Below are positions 2,329-57,670 of a DNA stretch of 64,000 nucleotides, piece by piece. This DNA comes from Acidobacteriota bacterium (GTDB taxonomy: Bacteria; Acidobacteriota; Vicinamibacteria; Vicinamibacterales; UBA2999): positions 9,601 through 73,600 of the forward strand of contig JACPTI010000064.1 of NCBI GenBank assembly GCA_016192845.1. The letters are read 5' to 3'. The notes under the pieces are model-generated. The model was not told the DNA's origin, ran no database searches, and worked only from the letters and a program-made list of their open reading frames with translations. Position 1 is the first letter of the stretch. Each line of letters starts with the position of its first letter. Position numbers and translations under genes: made by a program.

Positions 2329-2357
2329 CGTACGGAGCGGCCGGCTTCGGCCGGGCC
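2329..2357. repeat. Degenerate REP hairpin (CCGGC-TTCG-GCCGG) just after upp
   Basis: 23/29 nt identical to the recO-embedded copy at 57387-57415. Confidence 0.65.
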
Positions 2358-41811: not shown

Positions 41812-41976
41812 TAGCCGGTAGCCGGTAGCCGGTAGCCGGTAGCTGGTAGCCGGTAGCCGGTAGCTGGTAGCTGGTGTCAGTTGTCAGTTGCCAATTGCCG
41901 GTTATCAGGAAGCCACGAGCTCTCGGGCCGTCCTGAAGCGCCAATTGACAACCGACAACTGACAACTGACAACTAC
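41812..41976. repeat. Nine TAGC(C/T)GG heptamers, then TGTCAGT / TGACAAC heptamer inverted arms
   Basis: Counted: 9 units at 41812-41874; arms at 41875-41909 and 41941-41976. Confidence 0.9.
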
Positions 41977-45480: not shown

Positions 45481-48156
45481 TCAGTTCGCCGGCACCAGCC
45501 GCTTCAACTCCTCTGTCCAGTTCTGCACCACGACGAGGGATCGGAAGGACGTGGCGTCGTCGGTGGCCTGCGCGGTCTTGAGCATGAGGAAGCGGCGGCC
45601 ATCAGGCGATACGTCGTAGTGCCGCGCGGCGAACACCGAGCCATACGCACCTTTGAACACGACCTGCGGGGTGCCGGCGGAAAAGCCGGTTCCCAGCTGG
45701 ACGGGAACAGCGATCAGCGTCCCCGGCACCACGAAGTAGAACAGCTCGCGCCCGTTCCGCGACCAGACGGGACGTGTCCCGCCGTCTGTCGACACCTGCC
45801 ATCGGCCCGCGTCAACGTTGGGAAACGGGCGGACGTAAATCTCGTCCCGGCCCGACTCGTTGGACTGATAGGCGAGCCACCGGCCGTCGGGAGAGATCTC
45901 GCCGTTCACTTCGTTGTACGGAGCGCGAAGGATGAGCGCCGCCCGGCGCTCGCCCTCCAGCGTCACAACACCAAGGTCATATGGTGGTGCGTCCGGCTGA
46001 TTGAAGATCAGTCGCCTGCCATCCGGTGAGAACGAGTTGGGAACTTGAACGACCGGACCCTGGGTCAGGCGCTCTGGAGCGCCGGTGCCGTCGGACGCCT
46101 GCCAGTAGATCGTTTCACCGCCGTCACGCTCCGCCGTAAACGCCATGCGTCTCCCGTCCGGACTCCAGACAGGCCCCCGGTTGTTCCCCGGATCGAACGT
46201 CAGACGGGTCATCGTTTTGCGGATCAGATCCCAGAGCCAGATGTCGTTCTGCTCCCCGCGGACATCGAGGGCGATTCGGGTTCCGTCCGGCGACAGTCGC
46301 GCGTACGCATAGGGGCGCGGCGGCACGCCAATCGGTTCCTCGCGCCCCATCCGGTCCACCCAGACGGGTGAAAAGGCCAGTAGTGACCCGACGCGCCCGG
46401 GCAGGTACACCATCGTGCCGTTGGCCGCGACGGACACATCCACGGCCCCTGGGAGCGTGGTCGCGACCCCTTCGAGCACAGGGACCGGCGTGCCGACGAT
46501 TTGACGACTATCGAGGTCGAACGGCACGGCGCGCAGTGTGCCGCTCGCTCCATACACGAGGTGCCCCGTCGGTACATAGTGCGCGTGGTGGCCGCCGCGC
46601 ACGAGCACCTTGTACACGCCGGTTGCGATGTCGAGAACAGCGATCTGGGCGTTATCGAGCCCCCCGCGTGTTGGGGTGATGGTGAAGAGGACCGCCTGGC
46701 CGCCGGGCAGGAGCTCCGGCCACATGTGATCGCCCTCACCTCGCTCGCGGTCGGGTTTCGTGAGCACCATTGGTTCACCGCCCGCGGCGGAGACGCGCTG
46801 CAGGCCGGTCGTCAGAGCGCCGGTGGCAAAGATCACCGTGTCGTCGGGCAGCCAGGTCGCGCCGCGCGCGGCGCCATCCATCTGTGCAATCGTGACAGCG
46901 GGCCCGCCCGCGATGGCGACCTTCTTCAACGTCGACACCGTATCCACAAACCCGAGCCACTGGCCGTCTGGCGACACGAAGACATGCGGCTCGATCTGGT
47001 CGAGCGCACGCACCAGGAGCTGGTTGTCGCCGCGATAAATGATCCGCGACCCATCCGGCGTGATGGCCACGTCGCGGTCGGCCCCCTGAATGCTCAACGC
47101 CCTCTCCCCCGTCGTCACGATCTCGGTCCGCACCACGCGCGGCGGGGCCGGGCGCATCGTCCACCAGACCCCGGCGCCCGCGAGCAGCGCCGCGCCGACG
47201 GCAGCAGCTCCCGCCGGCGCAACCCGCCGCCACCCTGGCCTATTCGCCACAGCCGCGCGGCGTTCCGGCTCCGCCCTATCGGACGCTCCGGGTGCCGTGG
47301 CCTCATCGAGCACAAACAACAGCGTCGACGCGTCCGCCACGCGCTTCCTGACGTCGCGTTCCAGACACCGGCGCAGCAGCGCCAGCACAGAGGCAGGCGT
47401 ACTGGCGGAGAGCGCGCGCCAGTCGGGCTCTTTCGTGAGCACGAAGGCCAGCGTCTCGCTCAGGTCCTCGCCCTCGAACGCCCGCTTCCCCGTGAGCATC
47501 TCGCAGAGCACGCAGCCGAACGCCCAAATATCCGCGCGCTTGTCCACCGGCTTGCCGCGCGCCTGTTCAGGCGCCATGTACGCGGCGGTGCCCAGGATGA
47601 CGCCGGCCTGCGTGGCCGCCACGGTCAACGTCGGGGAGTTGGTGAGGACCGGGGTGCCCGCGGGACCTGCCTCGGCCGGTCCGAGTGCCTTCGCGAGTCC
47701 GAAGTCGAGCACCTTGACCTGTCCGCCTGCCGTCAACGCGATGTTGGCCGGTTTGAGGTCGCGGTGGACGATCCCCTTCTCGTGTGCGGCCTGCAGCGCG
47801 TCGGCAATCTGCCTCGCGATCGCCAGTGCCTCGGCGACGTGAATCGGGCCCGTCTTCAGCCGCTCGGCGAGCGTGTCGCCGTCCACCAGCTCCATCACGA
47901 GGAACTGCGAGGCGTCCGAGCCTTCCAGACCGTAGATCGCCGCGATGTGCGGATGGTTCAGCGCCGCGAGGAGCTGCGCCTCGCGCTCGAAGCGCGCAAT
48001 GCGCTCGGGATCGCTGACGACGCTGGCGGGGAGGACCTTGATGGCGACGTCACGCGCAAGCTTCGTGTCGCGAGCGCGATAGACCTCGCCCATACCGCCG
48101 GCACCAAGAGCGGCCTGAATCTCGTACACGCCGAGGCGCGTGCCGGGCGAGAGCAT
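45481..48156 (-). CDS. Ser/Thr kinase with TM and extracellular TolB/PD40 beta-propeller
   Basis: LGAGGMGEVY, VAIK, HRDLKPAN, DFG, GTAAYMAPE; repeated SPDG units. Confidence 0.95.
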   Translation of the reverse strand: MLSPGTRLGVYEIQAALGAGGMGEVYRARDTKLARDVAIKVLPASVVSDPERIARFEREAQLLAALNHPHIAAIYGLEGSDASQFLVMELVDGDTLAERLKTGPIHVAEALAIARQIADALQAAHEKGIVHRDLKPANIALTAGGQVKVLDFGLAKALGPAEAGPAGTPVLTNSPTLTVAATQAGVILGTAAYMAPEQARGKPVDKRADIWAFGCVLCEMLTGKRAFEGEDLSETLAFVLTKEPDWRALSASTPASVLALLRRCLERDVRKRVADASTLLFVLDEATAPGASDRAEPERRAAVANRPGWRRVAPAGAAAVGAALLAGAGVWWTMRPAPPRVVRTEIVTTGERALSIQGADRDVAITPDGSRIIYRGDNQLLVRALDQIEPHVFVSPDGQWLGFVDTVSTLKKVAIAGGPAVTIAQMDGAARGATWLPDDTVIFATGALTTGLQRVSAAGGEPMVLTKPDRERGEGDHMWPELLPGGQAVLFTITPTRGGLDNAQIAVLDIATGVYKVLVRGGHHAHYVPTGHLVYGASGTLRAVPFDLDSRQIVGTPVPVLEGVATTLPGAVDVSVAANGTMVYLPGRVGSLLAFSPVWVDRMGREEPIGVPPRPYAYARLSPDGTRIALDVRGEQNDIWLWDLIRKTMTRLTFDPGNNRGPVWSPDGRRMAFTAERDGGETIYWQASDGTGAPERLTQGPVVQVPNSFSPDGRRLIFNQPDAPPYDLGVVTLEGERRAALILRAPYNEVNGEISPDGRWLAYQSNESGRDEIYVRPFPNVDAGRWQVSTDGGTRPVWSRNGRELFYFVVPGTLIAVPVQLGTGFSAGTPQVVFKGAYGSVFAARHYDVSPDGRRFLMLKTAQATDDATSFRSLVVVQNWTEELKRLVPAN

Positions 48157-48271: not shown

Positions 48272-50017
48272 CTAGATCCGCTGGAAGTTTTTCTCGACTT
48301 CCCTGCGCGTGATCCGCAGCATCACCGGCCGGCCGTGGGGACAGATGGTCGAGTACGCGGTTTGCCGGAGCTCTTCGAGGATGTGCGCCATCTTCTCGGC
48401 GGTGAGCGGATAGTTCGCCTTCACCGCCGCGTGGCACGCCATTGTCGCCGCGAGGCGCCGGAGCGCCTCCTCCACCCGCGCACCGCGATCGAGCCCTTCG
48501 AGGTCTTCGCCGAGCGCGCGAATCGCCGTCTCGCAGTCCTCGCGCCGCAGCAGCGCCGGAACCGCCGCCACACGGACCGCGCCGCCGCCAAACTCCTCCA
48601 GCTCGAATCCGAGGCGCTCGAGCTCGGCGGCGTGCACGGCGAGCCCCTGGCGCACGCCGGGCGACAGCTCGATGAGCATCGGCTCGAGCAGGCGCTGGCT
48701 CTCGAGCCGGCCGACGGTCAACCGCTGCAGAATCCGCTCGAACAGCACGCGCTCGTGCGCAACGTGCTGATCGATGATCGCAATTCCTTCCTCATCCACC
48801 GCGATGATGAATGTGTCGCGAAATTGCCCGAGAGCGATCATCGGCCGGATCGTCGGACTGGCGACCTCGGTCCGGCTAAAGCCGGACACTGCGTCTGATG
48901 GTGCCACCCCACCCGCCCCACCCGCCCCAGTCGTCCATCGGCTCGGGTACGTCGCGGCGTAGCCAGCCGGCAGCGGGAGCGTGGCCGCAGCCGGCTCCCC
49001 CGGGCGCGAGGCCTCGAGCTGCAGCTCCGGCGCCGCGCCGCGGCCGAGCGCGTCTGCAAGGGTTCTGCGGATCACCTCGTGCACGTAGGACTGATCCCGG
49101 AACCGTACTTCCGCCTTCGTCGGGTGGACGTTGACGTCGACCGCCGTGTACGGCATCGACAGAAAGAGGTGGACCTCGGGGCTGCGCTCCTTGATGGACG
49201 CCACGCTGTACGCGTCGATGATCGCGTGCGCAATCGTCCGATCGCGCACGATCCGGCGGTTCACGAACACGTTCTGTGGCCCGCGCGTCGGTCCCTGCTC
49301 GGCCAGCGCCGCGACGAACCCGACCACCTTCACGTCGCCCGTGTCGCGGTGCACTTCGATCAGATCCGTCCGTTCGCCGTAGAGCTGGTACAGCCGGTCG
49401 CGCAACCCGACGACCGGCGGGCACTCCAGCAGCCTGCGGCCGGCGCTGGTCAGCGTGAACCCGATCTCCGGGTAGCACAGCGCGATCTGCGTGACGATGC
49501 GCGAAACCTGCGCCGCTTCGGCGGCGTCGGACTTCAGGAACTTCCGGCGCGCGGGCAGATTGTAGAAGAGGTCGGTCACCTCGACCGACGTGCCTTCGGG
49601 CATGCCGACTTCCGCGACCGAGGCGACCGCGCCGCCGTTGACCCGAATCTCGGTGCCCGACCCGCTCCCGCGCGCCCGGCTGCGCAGGACGACATGCGAC
49701 ACGGACGCGACGGCCGGCAGCGCCTCGCCGCGGAACCCGAGCGTGGCAATCGCGTCCAGGTCGTCGGCCCGGCGGATTTTGCTCGTGGCATGCCGCTCCA
49801 CCGCCAGCCGCACGTCCTCCGCCACCATCCCTTCGCCGTCGTCATCGACGCGAATCAGCTTCTTGCCGCCGATCTCGACGGCGACGGCGATCCGCCGCGC
49901 GCCCGCATCGATGGCGTTCTCGACCAGCTCCTTGACGACCGACGCCGGCCGCTCCACCACTTCGCCGGCAGCAATCTGGTTGGCGAGGTCGCCCGGCAGG
50001 ACGTGGATCCTCGCCAT
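48272..50017 (-). CDS. mutL: DNA mismatch repair protein MutL
   Basis: NQIAAGEVVERPASVVKELVENAIDA, GFRGEAL, DQHVAHERVLFE, ACHAAVKAN, CPHGRP. Confidence 0.98.
   Translation of the reverse strand: MARIHVLPGDLANQIAAGEVVERPASVVKELVENAIDAGARRIAVAVEIGGKKLIRVDDDGEGMVAEDVRLAVERHATSKIRRADDLDAIATLGFRGEALPAVASVSHVVLRSRARGSGSGTEIRVNGGAVASVAEVGMPEGTSVEVTDLFYNLPARRKFLKSDAAEAAQVSRIVTQIALCYPEIGFTLTSAGRRLLECPPVVGLRDRLYQLYGERTDLIEVHRDTGDVKVVGFVAALAEQGPTRGPQNVFVNRRIVRDRTIAHAIIDAYSVASIKERSPEVHLFLSMPYTAVDVNVHPTKAEVRFRDQSYVHEVIRRTLADALGRGAAPELQLEASRPGEPAAATLPLPAGYAATYPSRWTTGAGGAGGVAPSDAVSGFSRTEVASPTIRPMIALGQFRDTFIIAVDEEGIAIIDQHVAHERVLFERILQRLTVGRLESQRLLEPMLIELSPGVRQGLAVHAAELERLGFELEEFGGGAVRVAAVPALLRREDCETAIRALGEDLEGLDRGARVEEALRRLAATMACHAAVKANYPLTAEKMAHILEELRQTAYSTICPHGRPVMLRITRREVEKNFQRI
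48869..48893 (-). repeat. GTAG-family REP read in frame inside the mutL linker
   Basis: GGTCCGGCTAAAGCCGGACACTGCG, 24/25 identical to the reverse complement of 57391-57415; encodes AVSGFSRT. Confidence 0.85.
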
Positions 50018-50019
50018 CC

Positions 50020-50985
50020 TCAGATCCACCGGTTCCAGCGGAACACGGCCAGCATCCCGACGGCGATCGCGGCCATCACGGCCGCCACCCACCAGAACTG
50101 CGCGCCTTCGCCGCCCGGAAACGTCGGCAGCGGAATGTTCATCCCCCACATGCCGGTCAGCACGGTGAGCGGCAGGAAGATGGTCGAGATGACGGTCAGC
50201 ACCTTGACGATCACGTTCAGCCGGTTCGAGACGGCGGACAGGTGCGCCTCGAGGATGCTCGTCACGCGATCTTGAAACAGGATTGCCTCGTCCGACAGCC
50301 GGACGAAGTGGTCATAGACGTCCCGGAAGCGATAGGCGATCTCGTCGTTGATCTGCGGAAACTCCCGCCGGGCCAGTCGGCCGACGGCGTCGCGCTGCGG
50401 CAGGACCACGCGGCGGAGCGAGGCGAGGTCGCGCTTGAGGACCAGAATCTGCCGAATGAGGTTCGGACGACGGCCGAGGATCGCGGTCTCCTCGAGCTCG
50501 TCGATCTGGTCCTCGAGGGCGTCGACCTCGGGCCGGTAGTTCTCCACCATCGTGTCGACGATGCGGTGCAGCAGCGCCGCCGGCCCCTCGGCCAGCACGT
50601 GCTCGTGACGGTCGCAGACCTCCCGCCACCTGGCGATGCTGCGCGACCGACCGTCGTGCACCGTCACCAGGTAGTTGCGGCCGAGGAAGAAGTCGATGTC
50701 GCGCGTGGCGAACCCCTTGCGGCGCCCTTCGAAATCGATCCCGTGCAGGATGACATACAGGTACCCGGGATACGGCTCGATTTTCGGATGATGGATGGCG
50801 CTCAGCGCGTCTTCCACCGACAGGGGGTGAAAACGAAAGACGTCGCTCAGCAGGCGCCCCTCGTTTGGGCCGGGCGCCGCCAGATCCACCCACAGGGTCA
50901 CGTCGGTGCTCGGTTCCAGCCACGCGGGGTCGATATGCGGAACGCTGGTCGTCTCGCCGTTCCGATGGACGTAGATGCTGATCAC
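50020..50985 (-). CDS. corA: CorA-family Mg2+/Co2+ transporter
   Basis: FHPLSVED, HPKIE, S.RLN...KVLT...IFLP.T...G.WGMN. Confidence 0.95.
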   Translation of the reverse strand: MISIYVHRNGETTSVPHIDPAWLEPSTDVTLWVDLAAPGPNEGRLLSDVFRFHPLSVEDALSAIHHPKIEPYPGYLYVILHGIDFEGRRKGFATRDIDFFLGRNYLVTVHDGRSRSIARWREVCDRHEHVLAEGPAALLHRIVDTMVENYRPEVDALEDQIDELEETAILGRRPNLIRQILVLKRDLASLRRVVLPQRDAVGRLARREFPQINDEIAYRFRDVYDHFVRLSDEAILFQDRVTSILEAHLSAVSNRLNVIVKVLTVISTIFLPLTVLTGMWGMNIPLPTFPGGEGAQFWWVAAVMAAIAVGMLAVFRWNRWI

Positions 50986-50998
50986 TTGTCGTGCAGCG

Positions 50999-53746
<2,748 letters not shown>

Positions 53747-53749
53747 GCC

Positions 53750-55981
53750 TCAACCCTCCGTCGCCATCTCGGACAAGTCCGCAATTTCCAGAATCAGATC
53801 GCGAAGCGTCGCGACGAGCGCCAGCCGCGCCCGCCGGACCTTCTGATCTTCAGCCATCACAAGCACGTCGTCGAAAAACTGCGCCACCGCGGCTCTGAGA
53901 GACGCGATGTGTTGAAATGCCTGAAGATAATCCCCCTTCGACGTTGCTGCACTGATGACCGGTGCCGCTTCTTCCAACGTTCGCCGCAGGAGCACCTCAG
54001 CAGGCTCTTTGAGCAGCGGACGAGCGCCTTCTGGAAGCACCGCCCCGCTCGGCGGTACGTCCTTCGAAATGTTCTTGACGCGCTTGAAGAGCGCGGCGAC
54101 GGCGCGCAGCGATTCCGAACCGCTCATCTGGGCCAGCGCTTCGAGCTTCAGCCGCGCCTCGAGCGGGCTCACCTGCTCGATGTCCCCGTGCAGAACCGCC
54201 CGGACGTTGCGCACGTCATAGCCGCGCTGCTCGAGGAGATACGTCAGCCGGTCGGCCATGAACGACAACAGGGGTGCGCGATCGGCCGCGCCAAACGGCT
54301 CGCCGGCGCGTGCCAGCAGGGCACCGATGCGCAGCCGGGCCGTGAGCCCGGTGACCTCCGGCAGGTCGGTCAGCACCTTGACGGCGCCCTGGGCCTGGCG
54401 CCGCAGCCCGAGCGGATCGCGCGACCCCGTGGGGCGTTCGCCCGCCGTAAACATGCCGACGACCGAATCGAGCTTGTCGGCCAGCGACAGGGCCGCCCAG
54501 GTGATTGCGGCCTCGCCGAGCTGCTGCCGCGTGGGCGGGGCGTCGGCCTCGACGCCAATCGGCAGGTAGTGGAAGTAGATCGCCTTCCAGATCTGCTCCG
54601 GCAGCCCCTCCTCACGCGCGTAGATCCCGCCCATCGTGCCCTGCAGCTCCGTCAGCTCCCGCACCATCTCGGTGGCGAGGTCGGCCTTCGAGAGGCGCCC
54701 GGCGCGCGCGGCCTGCTCGGCGACCGCATCCGGCTGTCCGAGGGCTTCCTTCGCGATCCACCTCGCCAGCGAGGAGACGCGGTCCGCCTTCTCGCGGTAG
54801 CTGCCGAGCTTGCCGTGGAACAGGATGGTCGACAGCCGATCGATGCGCGATTCGAGCGTCGCCTTGCGGTCTTCGTCCCAGAAGAACCGCGCGTCACGGA
54901 GCCGCGCGGCGAGCACCCGCTCCGCGTTGCGCGCGATGATCTCCGGCCGCTCGGGCTGCACGTTGATGACCGCCAGGAAAGCCGACTTCAGCTTCCCTTC
55001 CTCGTCGACCACCGGAAAGAAGTGCTGGTGATGGATCATCGTCGTCGTCAGCACCTCGTCCGGCAGCTGCAGGTACTCGGGCGGAAAATGGCCCGCAACG
55101 ACCGACGGGTATTCCACGAGATCCGGCACTTCCTGGAGCAGCGACGAATGCGCCGCCGCGAGGAGGCCTCCAGCCTTGAGCGACGTCGACAGGCCGACCC
55201 GTCCGCCGAGCCTGCGGGCGTGCGCCTCGAGCTCGCGCCGGATGCGCGACTCCCGCTCGTTCCGGTCGAGGATCACGAAGTTTTCCAGCAGCCGCGCCTG
55301 GTAGTCATCGAACGTCTTGATCTTGATTGCCCGTCCCGCCCGGCCGCTCGTCGTCTGAAATCGATGACCGTAGGTCTGCGAGCCCGAGCGGATCTCCTGC
55401 ACGTTGGGGCCTTCGGCCAGCTCGGTGCGGCGGATGACGAACGGGACGACGCGTCCGCCGTACATGAGCACCAGCCAGCGGATGGGGCGCGCAAAGAGCA
55501 GCTCCCCCTTGCCGTCGTCGAGGAAGGCATCCCACCGCATCGGCCTGGGAAACGTCAGGTCGCGCAGCAGCGCCGTCATCACGTCGGCCAGCACGTCGAC
55601 GGTGGCCTTGCCGCGCTGCCGCACCCGGTGGGCGAGGTACGTGCCCTTCGGCGTGTGGTGCTTTTCGAGCGCGGTGACCTCGACGCCGTACTTCCTGGCG
55701 AATCCGAGCGCCGCCGGCGTCGGCGTCCCGTCCGCCGCGTACGCGGCGCTGACGGGCGGCCCGGTCACCAGCTCCTCCAGATCCGTCTGCCGTTCGGCCA
55801 GCCTGGCGACGCGCACGGTCAGGCGCCGGGGCGTGCTGTAGCTTTCGGCGGGCGCTGCCGTCGTAAGGCGGAATTCCCGCAGGCGCACGTCGAGCTGGCG
55901 CGCCAGCTGCGCCGTGAGCGCCGGCAGCCAGCCGGCGGGAATCTCCTCGCACCCGATCTCGATGAGCAGCTCGCGGTCCAT
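53750..55981 (-). CDS. glyS: Glycine-tRNA ligase beta subunit
   Basis: LLIEIGCEEIP, TPRRL, VEYP, ARL.DA.FF, KADL.T.MV.E..ELQG.MG, GS.DP.GLRR. Confidence 0.97.
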   Translation of the reverse strand: MDRELLIEIGCEEIPAGWLPALTAQLARQLDVRLREFRLTTAAPAESYSTPRRLTVRVARLAERQTDLEELVTGPPVSAAYAADGTPTPAALGFARKYGVEVTALEKHHTPKGTYLAHRVRQRGKATVDVLADVMTALLRDLTFPRPMRWDAFLDDGKGELLFARPIRWLVLMYGGRVVPFVIRRTELAEGPNVQEIRSGSQTYGHRFQTTSGRAGRAIKIKTFDDYQARLLENFVILDRNERESRIRRELEAHARRLGGRVGLSTSLKAGGLLAAAHSSLLQEVPDLVEYPSVVAGHFPPEYLQLPDEVLTTTMIHHQHFFPVVDEEGKLKSAFLAVINVQPERPEIIARNAERVLAARLRDARFFWDEDRKATLESRIDRLSTILFHGKLGSYREKADRVSSLARWIAKEALGQPDAVAEQAARAGRLSKADLATEMVRELTELQGTMGGIYAREEGLPEQIWKAIYFHYLPIGVEADAPPTRQQLGEAAITWAALSLADKLDSVVGMFTAGERPTGSRDPLGLRRQAQGAVKVLTDLPEVTGLTARLRIGALLARAGEPFGAADRAPLLSFMADRLTYLLEQRGYDVRNVRAVLHGDIEQVSPLEARLKLEALAQMSGSESLRAVAALFKRVKNISKDVPPSGAVLPEGARPLLKEPAEVLLRRTLEEAAPVISAATSKGDYLQAFQHIASLRAAVAQFFDDVLVMAEDQKVRRARLALVATLRDLILEIADLSEMATEG

Positions 55982-55985
55982 CGCG

Positions 55986-56870
55986 TCAGCTCTCGGCCGC
56001 TTTCACGGCCTCGGACTCGCCGACGTAGGCCTTCGCAATGCGCACGGCGAGCTGGCGGACGCGGAGGATGTAGGCGGTGCGCTCGGTCACGCCGATGCTG
56101 CCGCTCGAATCGAGCAGGTTGAACAGATGGGAGCACTTCAAACAGTGTTCGAGCGCCGGCCAAATCAGACCGGAGCTCAGCAAGTGTTCGGACAATTCGT
56201 AATTCTCGTCGAACAGCGCGCGGTGAACCATCGCGAACGGCTGTTCGGGCGGCATGGTGACTTGGCCGAACGCATACTTTGACTGCTCGATTTCCTCCTG
56301 CAGCCGCACCTCACCGTACTTCACACCGCCGCCCCACTCGAGGTCGAACACGTTGTCGACGCGCTGCAGGAACATCGCGATGCGCTCGAGGCCGTAGGTG
56401 ATCTCGCACGAAATCGGCGACAGATCGAGGCCGCCCACCTGCTGGAAGTATGTGAACTGTGTGATCTCGAGCCCGTCGAGCATGACCTGCCAGCCGATGC
56501 CCCACGCGCCGAGCGTCGGCGACTCCCAGTTGTCCTCCTCGAACCGGATGTCGTGCTGCCGCGGGTTGATGCCGCACGCCTCGAGGCTCTCCAGGTAGAT
56601 CCGCTGCACTTCGTCCGGCGACGGCTTGAGGATCACCTGGTACTGGTGGTGCTTGAACAGGCGGTTCGGGTTCTGGCCGAAGCGCCCGTCATCGGGCCGC
56701 CGCGACGGCTGCACGTAGGCGACGCTCCACGGCTTGGGCCCGAGCACCCGGAACAGCGTCTCCGGGTGCGACGTGCCGGCACCGACCTCGAGGTCGAGCG
56801 GCTGCTGCAGCAGGCACCCGTGCGAGGCCCAGAAGGCGGAGAGCTTGAGAATCAGGTCCTGGAATGTCAC
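55986..56870 (-). CDS. glyQ: Glycine-tRNA ligase alpha subunit
   Basis: [52 protein letters not shown]. Confidence 0.98.
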
Positions 56871-56873
56871 GCT

Positions 56874-56950
56874 GCCACGGGCCACCGAGGCGCAGAGACA
56901 CCGAGGACGGCACATTCAAACCTGTCTCCGTGTCTCTGTGTCTCTGTGGC
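56874..56950. repeat. CACAGAGA-type repeats in inverted arms
   Basis: CCACCGAGGCGCAGAGACACCGAG versus CTCCGTGTCTCTGTGTCTCTGTGG. Confidence 0.75.
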
Positions 56951-56968
56951 CTGTCTCATGTGAAGAAT

Positions 56969-57670
56969 CTAGCCGCGCCGGCGCAGCTCGCGCAGCACAC
57001 GGTCGGATTTCAACGTCTTCTCGAGGTGCATGGCAATGAGCCCCCGGTGGAGCTGCTCGAGCTCGCGGAGCACGGCAGGTCCGGCCGGGACGTCGCCGAT
57101 GCGGTCCGGCGCCGCCGTGCGCGAGGCGGTCAGAAACGCCATGGCGCCCGACGACAGCGTGCCCTGCGCCTCCGGGTAGACGCCCTGCAACCGCAGCAGC
57201 CAGTACTCGAAATAGCGCGCCAGCGGCTCGACCGGCGCGCCCGCCGCGAGCGCGCCCAACATCGACGCGCCGAGGCGGTAGAGCCGCTCGTCGGCGTCGG
57301 CCTCCTGCGCCCATTCGTCGAGCAGTTCCGCAAAGTACCCCACGTACCCGAGCGCGTCACGGTCCCGTGCGCCGACGTCTGCCTCGCGTACGTAGTGTCC
57401 GGCTTTAGCCGGACCCGTAAGCGCCAGCGGCGACCGGATTGGCTCGGCGAAATTGAGCCCCACCAGCTCGCGCCGCTCCTTCTCGAAGTACGCGACGCGC
57501 GCCTCCGTGAGCGGCTCGAGCGCGCCGAGGAAGCGCGACCGCGCGCGGCGCGCCCCCTTGGCGACGCCCCGCTTCTTGCCGCGATCGCGCGTCAGGAACA
57601 CGACGATGCGATCGGCCTCACCGAGCTTGTAGGTGCGGAGAATCAGCGCGTCGGCTGTGTACAGGGGCAC
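56969..57670 (-). CDS. recO: DNA repair protein RecO
   Basis: ALILRTYKLGEADRIVVFLTRD.GK..GVAKGARR, FEYWLL...G; between era/mgtE and glyQ. Confidence 0.93.
   Translation of the reverse strand: MPLYTADALILRTYKLGEADRIVVFLTRDRGKKRGVAKGARRARSRFLGALEPLTEARVAYFEKERRELVGLNFAEPIRSPLALTGPAKAGHYVREADVGARDRDALGYVGYFAELLDEWAQEADADERLYRLGASMLGALAAGAPVEPLARYFEYWLLRLQGVYPEAQGTLSSGAMAFLTASRTAAPDRIGDVPAGPAVLRELEQLHRGLIAMHLEKTLKSDRVLRELRRRG
57387..57415 (+). repeat. GTAG-family REP read in frame (antisense) inside recO
   Basis: CGTACGTAGTGTCCGGCTTTAGCCGGACC; encodes GPAKAGHYV in RecO. Confidence 0.85.

Follow-up and report, generated by a model that had tools for sequence, protein, structure and literature searches.

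The window analysed here, a 64,000-nucleotide stretch of an Acidobacteriota genome (NCBI GenBank assembly GCA_016192845.1, contig JACPTI010000064.1, positions 9,601 to 73,600 of the forward strand), carries copies of one repetitive extragenic palindromic (REP) element inside two DNA-repair genes, mutL and recO, in frames that remain open and would add a short peptide to each protein. The element belongs to a genome-wide REP family associated with a REP-associated tyrosine transposase (RAYT) gene. Its in-frame copies lie in intact open reading frames (ORFs), avoid stop-bearing frames, are missing from REP-free relatives and, at several sites, persist in orthologues. We propose, with a probability of about 0.88, that they are translated, vertically inherited inserts of a RAYT-linked family, surviving only in stop-free frames and tolerant loops. 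The original prediction, made from the letters of the window, had claimed a 25-mer shared in opposite orientations by mutL and recO, assigned it to the REPs with a GTAG head and a hairpin, and read it as AVSGFSRT in MutL and GPAKAGHYV in RecO; the pair, the class and both open frames are borne out by the data below.

The REP family and its RAYT gene

The exact 25-mer GGTCCGGCTAAAGCCGGACACTGCG is located at 48869-48893 on the plus strand, within mutL, and its reverse complement, with one mismatch (24/25 identical), at 57391-57415, within recO. Allowing up to three mismatches, the window contains these two matches, while 100 dinucleotide shuffles contain none. The features of the window that bear on the family are:

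48272..50017, minus strand: mutL, with Pfam matches to HATPase_c_3, DNA_mis_repair (261-368) and MutL_C (440-580)
48869..48897, plus strand: REP copy in mutL with an intact hairpin, GTCCGGC-TAAA-GCCGGAC; the minus-strand gene reads AVSGFSRT
56969..57670, minus strand: recO, with Pfam matches to RecO_N (4-80) and RecO_C (from 102)
57387..57415, minus strand: REP copy in recO; the minus strand is GGTCCGGCTAAAGCCGGACACTACGTACG, read as GPAKAGHYV
45481-48156, minus strand: Ser/Thr kinase gene reading DFGLAKAL-GPAEAGP-AGTP
47663..47682, minus strand: decayed REP in the activation loop of this kinase, encoding GPAEAGP right after DFGLAKAL
2329..2357, minus strand: diverged extragenic REP beginning 2 nt past the TAA stop of an upp-like gene (so named from its C-terminal peptide alone)

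A 29-nt consensus, G-GTCCGGC-TRAA-GCCGGAC-RCY-ACGTAC-G, was derived from 183 hairpins oriented by their loop; on the other strand it is CGTAC-GT[AG]G-YGTCCGGC-TTYA-GCCGGAC-C, in which a 7-bp stem comes after a GT[AG]G head. Of the 183 copies, 99 have GTAG and 78 have GTGG as their head, and a paired G/C variant of the stem (GTCCGCC...GGCGGAC) occurs in about 20. The recO copy matches the consensus perfectly (29/29), the mutL copy at 26 of 29 positions, with a degenerate head (GCAG, not GTAG), and the copy behind the upp-like gene at 25/29; the 23/29 given earlier for the latter refers to the recO copy.

The assembly that holds the window (4.5 Mb, 153 contigs, 67.8% GC) comes from a soil acidobacterium of the order Vicinamibacterales (Acidobacteriota). 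Its REP copies, about 176-213 in number, are spread over most contigs: the 22-nt core has 20 exact occurrences and 195 when as many as three mismatches are allowed, and strict oriented copies number 176, as 108 singletons, 28 doublets and 4 triplets, so that the element is repeated genome-wide, as the original prediction presupposed. Within the 32 clusters of two or three REPs, 25 of 36 neighbour pairs are head-to-head, with start-to-start spacings of 30-81 nt. By its head tetranucleotide, hairpin, high copy number and inverted dimers, the repeat is a REP of the GTAG type. According to self-trained gene calls, about 79% of the strict copies (about 140) lie outside coding sequence, and 57 REPs are situated at most 30 nt downstream of a called stop codon.

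A RAYT gene, which the original prediction had set out to find, lies on contig C134 (3915-4480, minus strand; locus L002:1290-1960) and is bracketed by REPs. Its product exceeds the cut-offs of both NCBIfam NF047646 'REP-associated tyrosine transposase' (111.6 bits, cut-off 80) and Pfam Y1_Tnp PF01797 (34.3 bits, cut-off 23) and contains HLH (HUH) and RYILENP (Tyr) motifs. One REP precedes its probable start by about 45 nt; the 3' end of the gene (...AGG TCC GGC TAA) is itself a REP in a stop-bearing frame (SG*), the REP loop supplying the TAA stop, and a further inverted REP follows about 20 nt beyond that stop. Among 41 related genomes, a RAYT homologue is present in all 11 with at least 8 REPs vs 8 of the 30 others, and in the REP-rich genomes G004 and G037 it lies between listed REP copies. 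This co-occurrence and the flanking REPs suggest that the C134 gene is the cognate RAYT of the family, and its product would be the mobilising enzyme. The Pfam scan matched two Y1_Tnp genes in the genome. Other Y1_Tnp/RAYT-like genes were seen at C80:47968-48879, C107:7118-7387 and C52:2945-3196; none of these REPs adjoins the C80 gene, the C107 match contains an in-frame TGA, and it is possible that the three genes act on other repeat families or are in decay.

The nearest public MutL loci belong to metagenome-assembled genomes of Vicinamibacterales/Acidobacteriota. Copies of a 23-nt REP pattern, counted in the 41 related genomes, are distributed as follows:

own genome: 160 copies
G002 (same genus): 66 copies
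G003: 28 copies
G001 (congener): 4 copies
G004: 251 copies
G019: 162 copies
G037 (another family of the same order): 98 copies
five other genomes: 8-29 copies each
remaining genomes of the 41: 0-1 copies

A genome of 68% GC with many spurious long ORFs and low-complexity linkers rich in Gly, Pro and Ala might be thought to produce the shared 25-mer by chance, by convergence or from an ancestral coding sequence. Such an origin is already refuted by the shuffled window, by a reversed-pattern control that returned 0 copies in all 41 genomes, by the extragenic copies, by the REP-flanked RAYT gene and by REP-free orthologues of RecO, MutL and Maf, all of which lack the segment.

REP inserts in mutL, recO and other host genes

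The mutL ORF is open to 50149; its probable start is the Met of MARIHVLP, the start point of the orthologues. AVSGFSRT is positioned in the variable linker between DNA_mis_repair and MutL_C, and among 15 MutL orthologues VSGFSRT occurs in this genome only. Relatives fill the linker with other material, such as tandem octapeptide repeats of the SAIAPT type, and in G001 a low-complexity stretch matches the REP at 11/19 only. The octapeptide arrays, with 3-5 tandem 8-residue units resembling SAIAPT[SGD]A in G023, G007, G010, G005 and G002 (alignment A3, columns 425-470), constitute another kind of translated repeat and take the position of our REP. A separate length difference is found in the DNA_mis_repair region, where the MutL proteins of G001, G002 and G007 have 8-17 extra residues (GPLGEPGG, PGAAGGGLGGPFDRAQG, GPLDSARG) after AALAEQ and our protein has none (A3, columns 286-301).

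In RecO the REP-derived segment covers approximately residues 85-101, exactly at the junction of RecO_N and RecO_C. RecO proteins of REP-free genomes read ...SPL-x-L-(2-4 residues)-ALGY without the REP peptide, so that for both proteins the alignment with relatives, on which the original prediction was to be judged, leaves the peptides absent from REP-free orthologues. Our genome, G002 of the same genus and G023 of another genus all have GPAKAG[HR] at an identical codon position and with the REP in one orientation. Decayed or split remnants are seen in G022, G005 and G014, the arms in G014 being parted by extra sequence, and the insert is absent from the congener G001, which has 4 REPs genome-wide. 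Because the insert is common to several genera at one site and in one orientation and is variably decayed, it is older than the genus and has later decayed or been deleted in some lines. A PDB sequence search with RecO returned a weak match to the N-terminal domain of E. coli RecO (3q8d, E = 2e-4), which is uninformative on the insert. Predicted tryptic peptides spanning the inserts are ...LALTGPAK and AGHYVR for RecO and ...GVAPSDAVSGFSR for MutL.

Genome-wide, at least 37 of the 176 strict copies (21%) lie in frame inside genes, an intragenic call requiring coding signal on both flanks of the REP. As called stop-to-stop ORFs cover about 84% of the genome bases, an upper estimate of coding, intragenic REPs are strongly depleted, though far from absent. 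They are hosted by about 25-30 genes of many classes. Besides MutL and RecO, there are 20 host ORFs in which Pfam domains flank or enclose the insert: UvrA, GlgE, KdsB, Maf, an amidohydrolase, a pirin, a carbamoyltransferase, a phosphogluco/mannomutase, a VKOR-DsbA protein, an S9 peptidase, a GT4 glycosyltransferase, a radical-SAM protein, PxpB-PxpC, two spermine-synthase/TPR paralogues and several Ser/Thr kinases. The inserts are positioned between Pfam domains or at their edges, or they stretch domain envelopes. The expectation that REPs add segments to DNA-repair proteins therefore stands for MutL, RecO and UvrA, all hit in frame, but not as a preference confined to repair, given the many gene classes involved. 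The intragenic copies use the frames of the REP as follows:

GPA[KE]AG: 18 intragenic copies
[AV]SGFSRT: 12 intragenic copies
VRLQPD: 4 intragenic copies
VRLKPD: 3 intragenic copies
two stop-bearing frames: 0 intragenic copies

Of the two frames without intragenic copies, SG*SRT has a stop in every case and RT*CPA.. has one if the head is GTAG.

Persistence across genera is also seen in UvrA, where our genome, G002 and G014 share GPAKAG in site and orientation and G001 has a decayed version; common to several genera and variably decayed, this insert is therefore old. Maf of our genome has a 60-nt insert consisting of two tandem REPs, and in three congeners the site is empty, a GTCCGG hexamer remaining there in G002. 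In Maf of G023 the tandem array consists of three REPs, repeats every 33 nt and is read as (GPA[KE]AG[HR]YVLI)n.

Two adjacent REPs occupy the inter-domain linker of one fused gene:

C145:21196-22959: fused PxpB-PxpC (CT_C_D + CT_A_B)

A REP-driven fusion of PxpB and PxpC was considered and rejected, since the genes are fused in most relatives whatever their REPs and separate only in G004. A 980-codon frame at C114:9451-12390 (minus strand) joins the C-terminus of an AcrB-type pump (Pfam match to residue 796) and a YtkA-like domain (881-962), with two REPs between the domains (814, 837); the frame may reflect read-through or fusion across the spacer that holds the REPs, or it may comprise two genes lying in one frame.

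The Ser/Thr kinases of the genome (39 Pkinase matches) show a recurrent pattern of insertion. Five members of one 10-member clade (support 88/85) have REPs at two places, the beta4-beta5 turn (IYGLEE-[REP]-ALVLELVEG) and the activation loop directly after DFGLAKxx, as single units or head-to-head dimers and in both orientations. REP-related kinase loci are C94:763-1548, C94:4413-5234, C85, C95, C37, C58 and C102. The window kinase falls just outside this clade; since four paralogues carry near-consensus REPs at exactly the position of its GPAEAGP, where a fifth (C94:4413) reads GPADAG, the copy that had been suspected to be domesticated is a decayed REP at a known paralogue site. Also outside the clade, C102:12324 has a REP in the beta4-beta5 turn and its close paralogue C102:18563 has none. 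Stretches of the QASGLGP type in C94:763, C46 and C144 resemble decayed REPs of the opposite orientation.

Proposed inheritance, turnover and selection of the inserts

Based on these observations, we propose a hypothetical scheme in which (i) the REP family, as single units and head-to-head REPIN-like dimers, would be mobilised or maintained by its cognate RAYT; (ii) most REPs would land between genes, often just past stops, and a minority inside genes; (iii) selection would remove intragenic REPs that bring stops or strike structured regions, leaving those in surface loops and inter-domain linkers, such as the MutL linker, the RecO N/C junction, an acidic loop of UvrA and the beta4-beta5 and activation loops of the kinases; (iv) read-through would yield a loop of 7-11 residues rich in Gly, Pro, Ala and Ser, GPA[KE]AG[HR][HY]V or [AV]SGFSRT; and (v) the insert would then be inherited vertically, followed by slow decay, tandem expansion or deletion.

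In this scheme, translation is inferred from open frames and conservation, and the inserts would be near-neutral. Several points weigh against it. The gene calls come from a self-trained, iterated six-phase codon model and no standard annotator; it replaced a first codon log-odds model in which sense and antisense were indistinguishable at 68% GC, and it missed two kinase hosts, both recovered by the Pfam scan of the genome. The Pfam check covered 22 host ORFs (MutL, RecO and the 20 others). An AlphaFold2 model of RecO, built with 22 close orthologues, has a mean predicted local distance difference test score (pLDDT) of 61.6 and stays below 50 for residues 1-104; it was therefore left unused for placing the insert, whose surface exposure is a proposal. 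The recO copy remains at perfect consensus although its insert spans genera, which exceeds simple neutral decay. Paralogous kinases hold REPs in both orientations at the same sites, and between C94:763 and C94:4413, highly similar tandem paralogues with branch lengths of about 0.07, the REP content of both sites differs; REPs are gained or lost between such close paralogues, and a site preference or ongoing turnover is conceivable.

The last three observations are what would be expected if intragenic REPs were still active, with the RAYT or hairpin slippage inserting and removing them in frame at preferred sites and thereby producing reversible length variants. The Maf site could be read in the same way, with two REPs in our genome, three tandem units in G023, none in three congeners and a scar-like hexamer in G002. 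Many orthologous copies are visibly decayed, however, as expected of fossil inserts (RecO of G022, G005 and G014, UvrA of G001 and the window kinase), and upstream of the 183 REP copies no target motif is conserved save a weak C at -3. We consider ongoing activity unlikely, and a full turnover system that inserts, inverts, multiplies and deletes REPs at the RecO junction, the MutL linker, the Maf loop and the kinase loops quite unlikely. Were it to operate, the lengths of repair proteins and of a regulatory loop in an expanded kinase clade would vary heritably and perhaps reversibly.

Repair genes make up 3 of the approximately 25-30 host genes (MutL, RecO and UvrA). If 3-4% of genes are taken, as a general estimate, to belong to the replication/repair class, about 0.8 would be expected among 22 hosts, and the probability of at least three is about 0.05 in a rough Poisson estimate uncorrected for gene length and linkers, so that the trio is statistically borderline. 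Kinases and metabolic enzymes are hit at least as frequently, and the inserts fall in the least conserved segments. A real and adaptive excess, in which the inserts would tune repair and produce mutator or recombination phenotypes as speculated previously (PMC3733652), is for these reasons improbable in our judgement, even though the same bias has been reported independently in other phyla (PMC3733652).

Relation to known systems and further features of the window

REPs tagged with GTAG or CGTC have been described within genes of several species by Di Nocera, De Gregorio and Rocco (2013; BMC Genomics 14:522, PMC3733652). The GTAG cases include Opitutus terrae, Thauera, Xanthomonas and Thioalkalivibrio; the authors report that replication and repair genes are over-represented among the hosts and argue that the inserts occupy linkers or loops (PMC3733652). 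The present family resembles these REPs in its GT[AG]G head and hairpin (6-9-bp stem there), in REP-flanked RAYT genes, in the occurrence of singletons and dimers, and in the minority of copies that lie in frame inside known genes, where 7-30 residues are encoded in the earlier cases; uvrA, other repair genes and a Ser/Thr kinase are hosts in both. It differs in its phylum and order (Acidobacteriota, Vicinamibacterales), in the REP sequence, in inserts that are orthologous across genera and in their recurrence at two loops of one kinase clade. The supplementary table of PMC3733652 does not list mutL, and its sole 'reco' match is the start of a word, in a passage with no recO gene. Our results are thus a well-supported new example of translated REP insertion as already described, and no new phenomenon or mechanism. 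They extend it to Acidobacteriota, with one REP family, one putative cognate RAYT and about 37 in-frame copies, and show that such an insert can be retained at one codon position in several genera. The presence of MutL, RecO and UvrA among the hosts independently repeats an earlier, unexplained observation (PMC3733652).

The original prediction had regarded in-frame palindromic insertions as best known from Rickettsia, which is too narrow a view given the cases in Opitutus, Thauera, Xanthomonas and others (PMC3733652). The Rickettsia palindromic elements (RPE; Ogata et al. 2000, as cited in PMC3733652) are likewise palindromic selfish repeats inserted in frame, in genes that stay functional and at surface-compatible positions. 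RPE-1 is much longer, about 100-150 bp, in contrast to the 29-nt unit found here, no dedicated RAYT is known for most RPEs, and Rickettsia is an alphaproteobacterium that lives obligately inside cells and has a reduced genome, whereas the present host is free-living and GC-rich. For genome annotation, REP insertion would explain odd segments rich in Gly, Pro and Ala in conserved proteins, and REPs can supply stop codons as well as linker peptides.

The REP/REPIN-RAYT systems of Pseudomonas and E. coli (TnpA-REP), reportedly described by Nunvar in 2010 and by Bertels and Rainey in 2011, share with the present family the REPtron layout and the head-to-head dimers; in both, copies number in the hundreds and their patchy distribution among relatives follows that of the RAYT. 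Their copies are almost all extragenic; here, by contrast, about one fifth of the strict copies are in frame and probably translated.

Three further features of the window were observed. Just downstream of the REP at 2329-2357, five tandem 39-nt units (13 codons, EEMNAAIALLATR-like) occupy 2536-2781. A tandem heptamer array of about 10 units, TAGCCGG/TAGCTGG, is located at 41812-41882. On the plus strand, an ATG-started frame of 1715 codons (50975-56122) runs antisense to the minus-strand ORFs 50999-53746 and 53750-55981; the codon model favours these two ORFs, and the plus-strand frame is a very long shadow ORF of a GC-rich genome.

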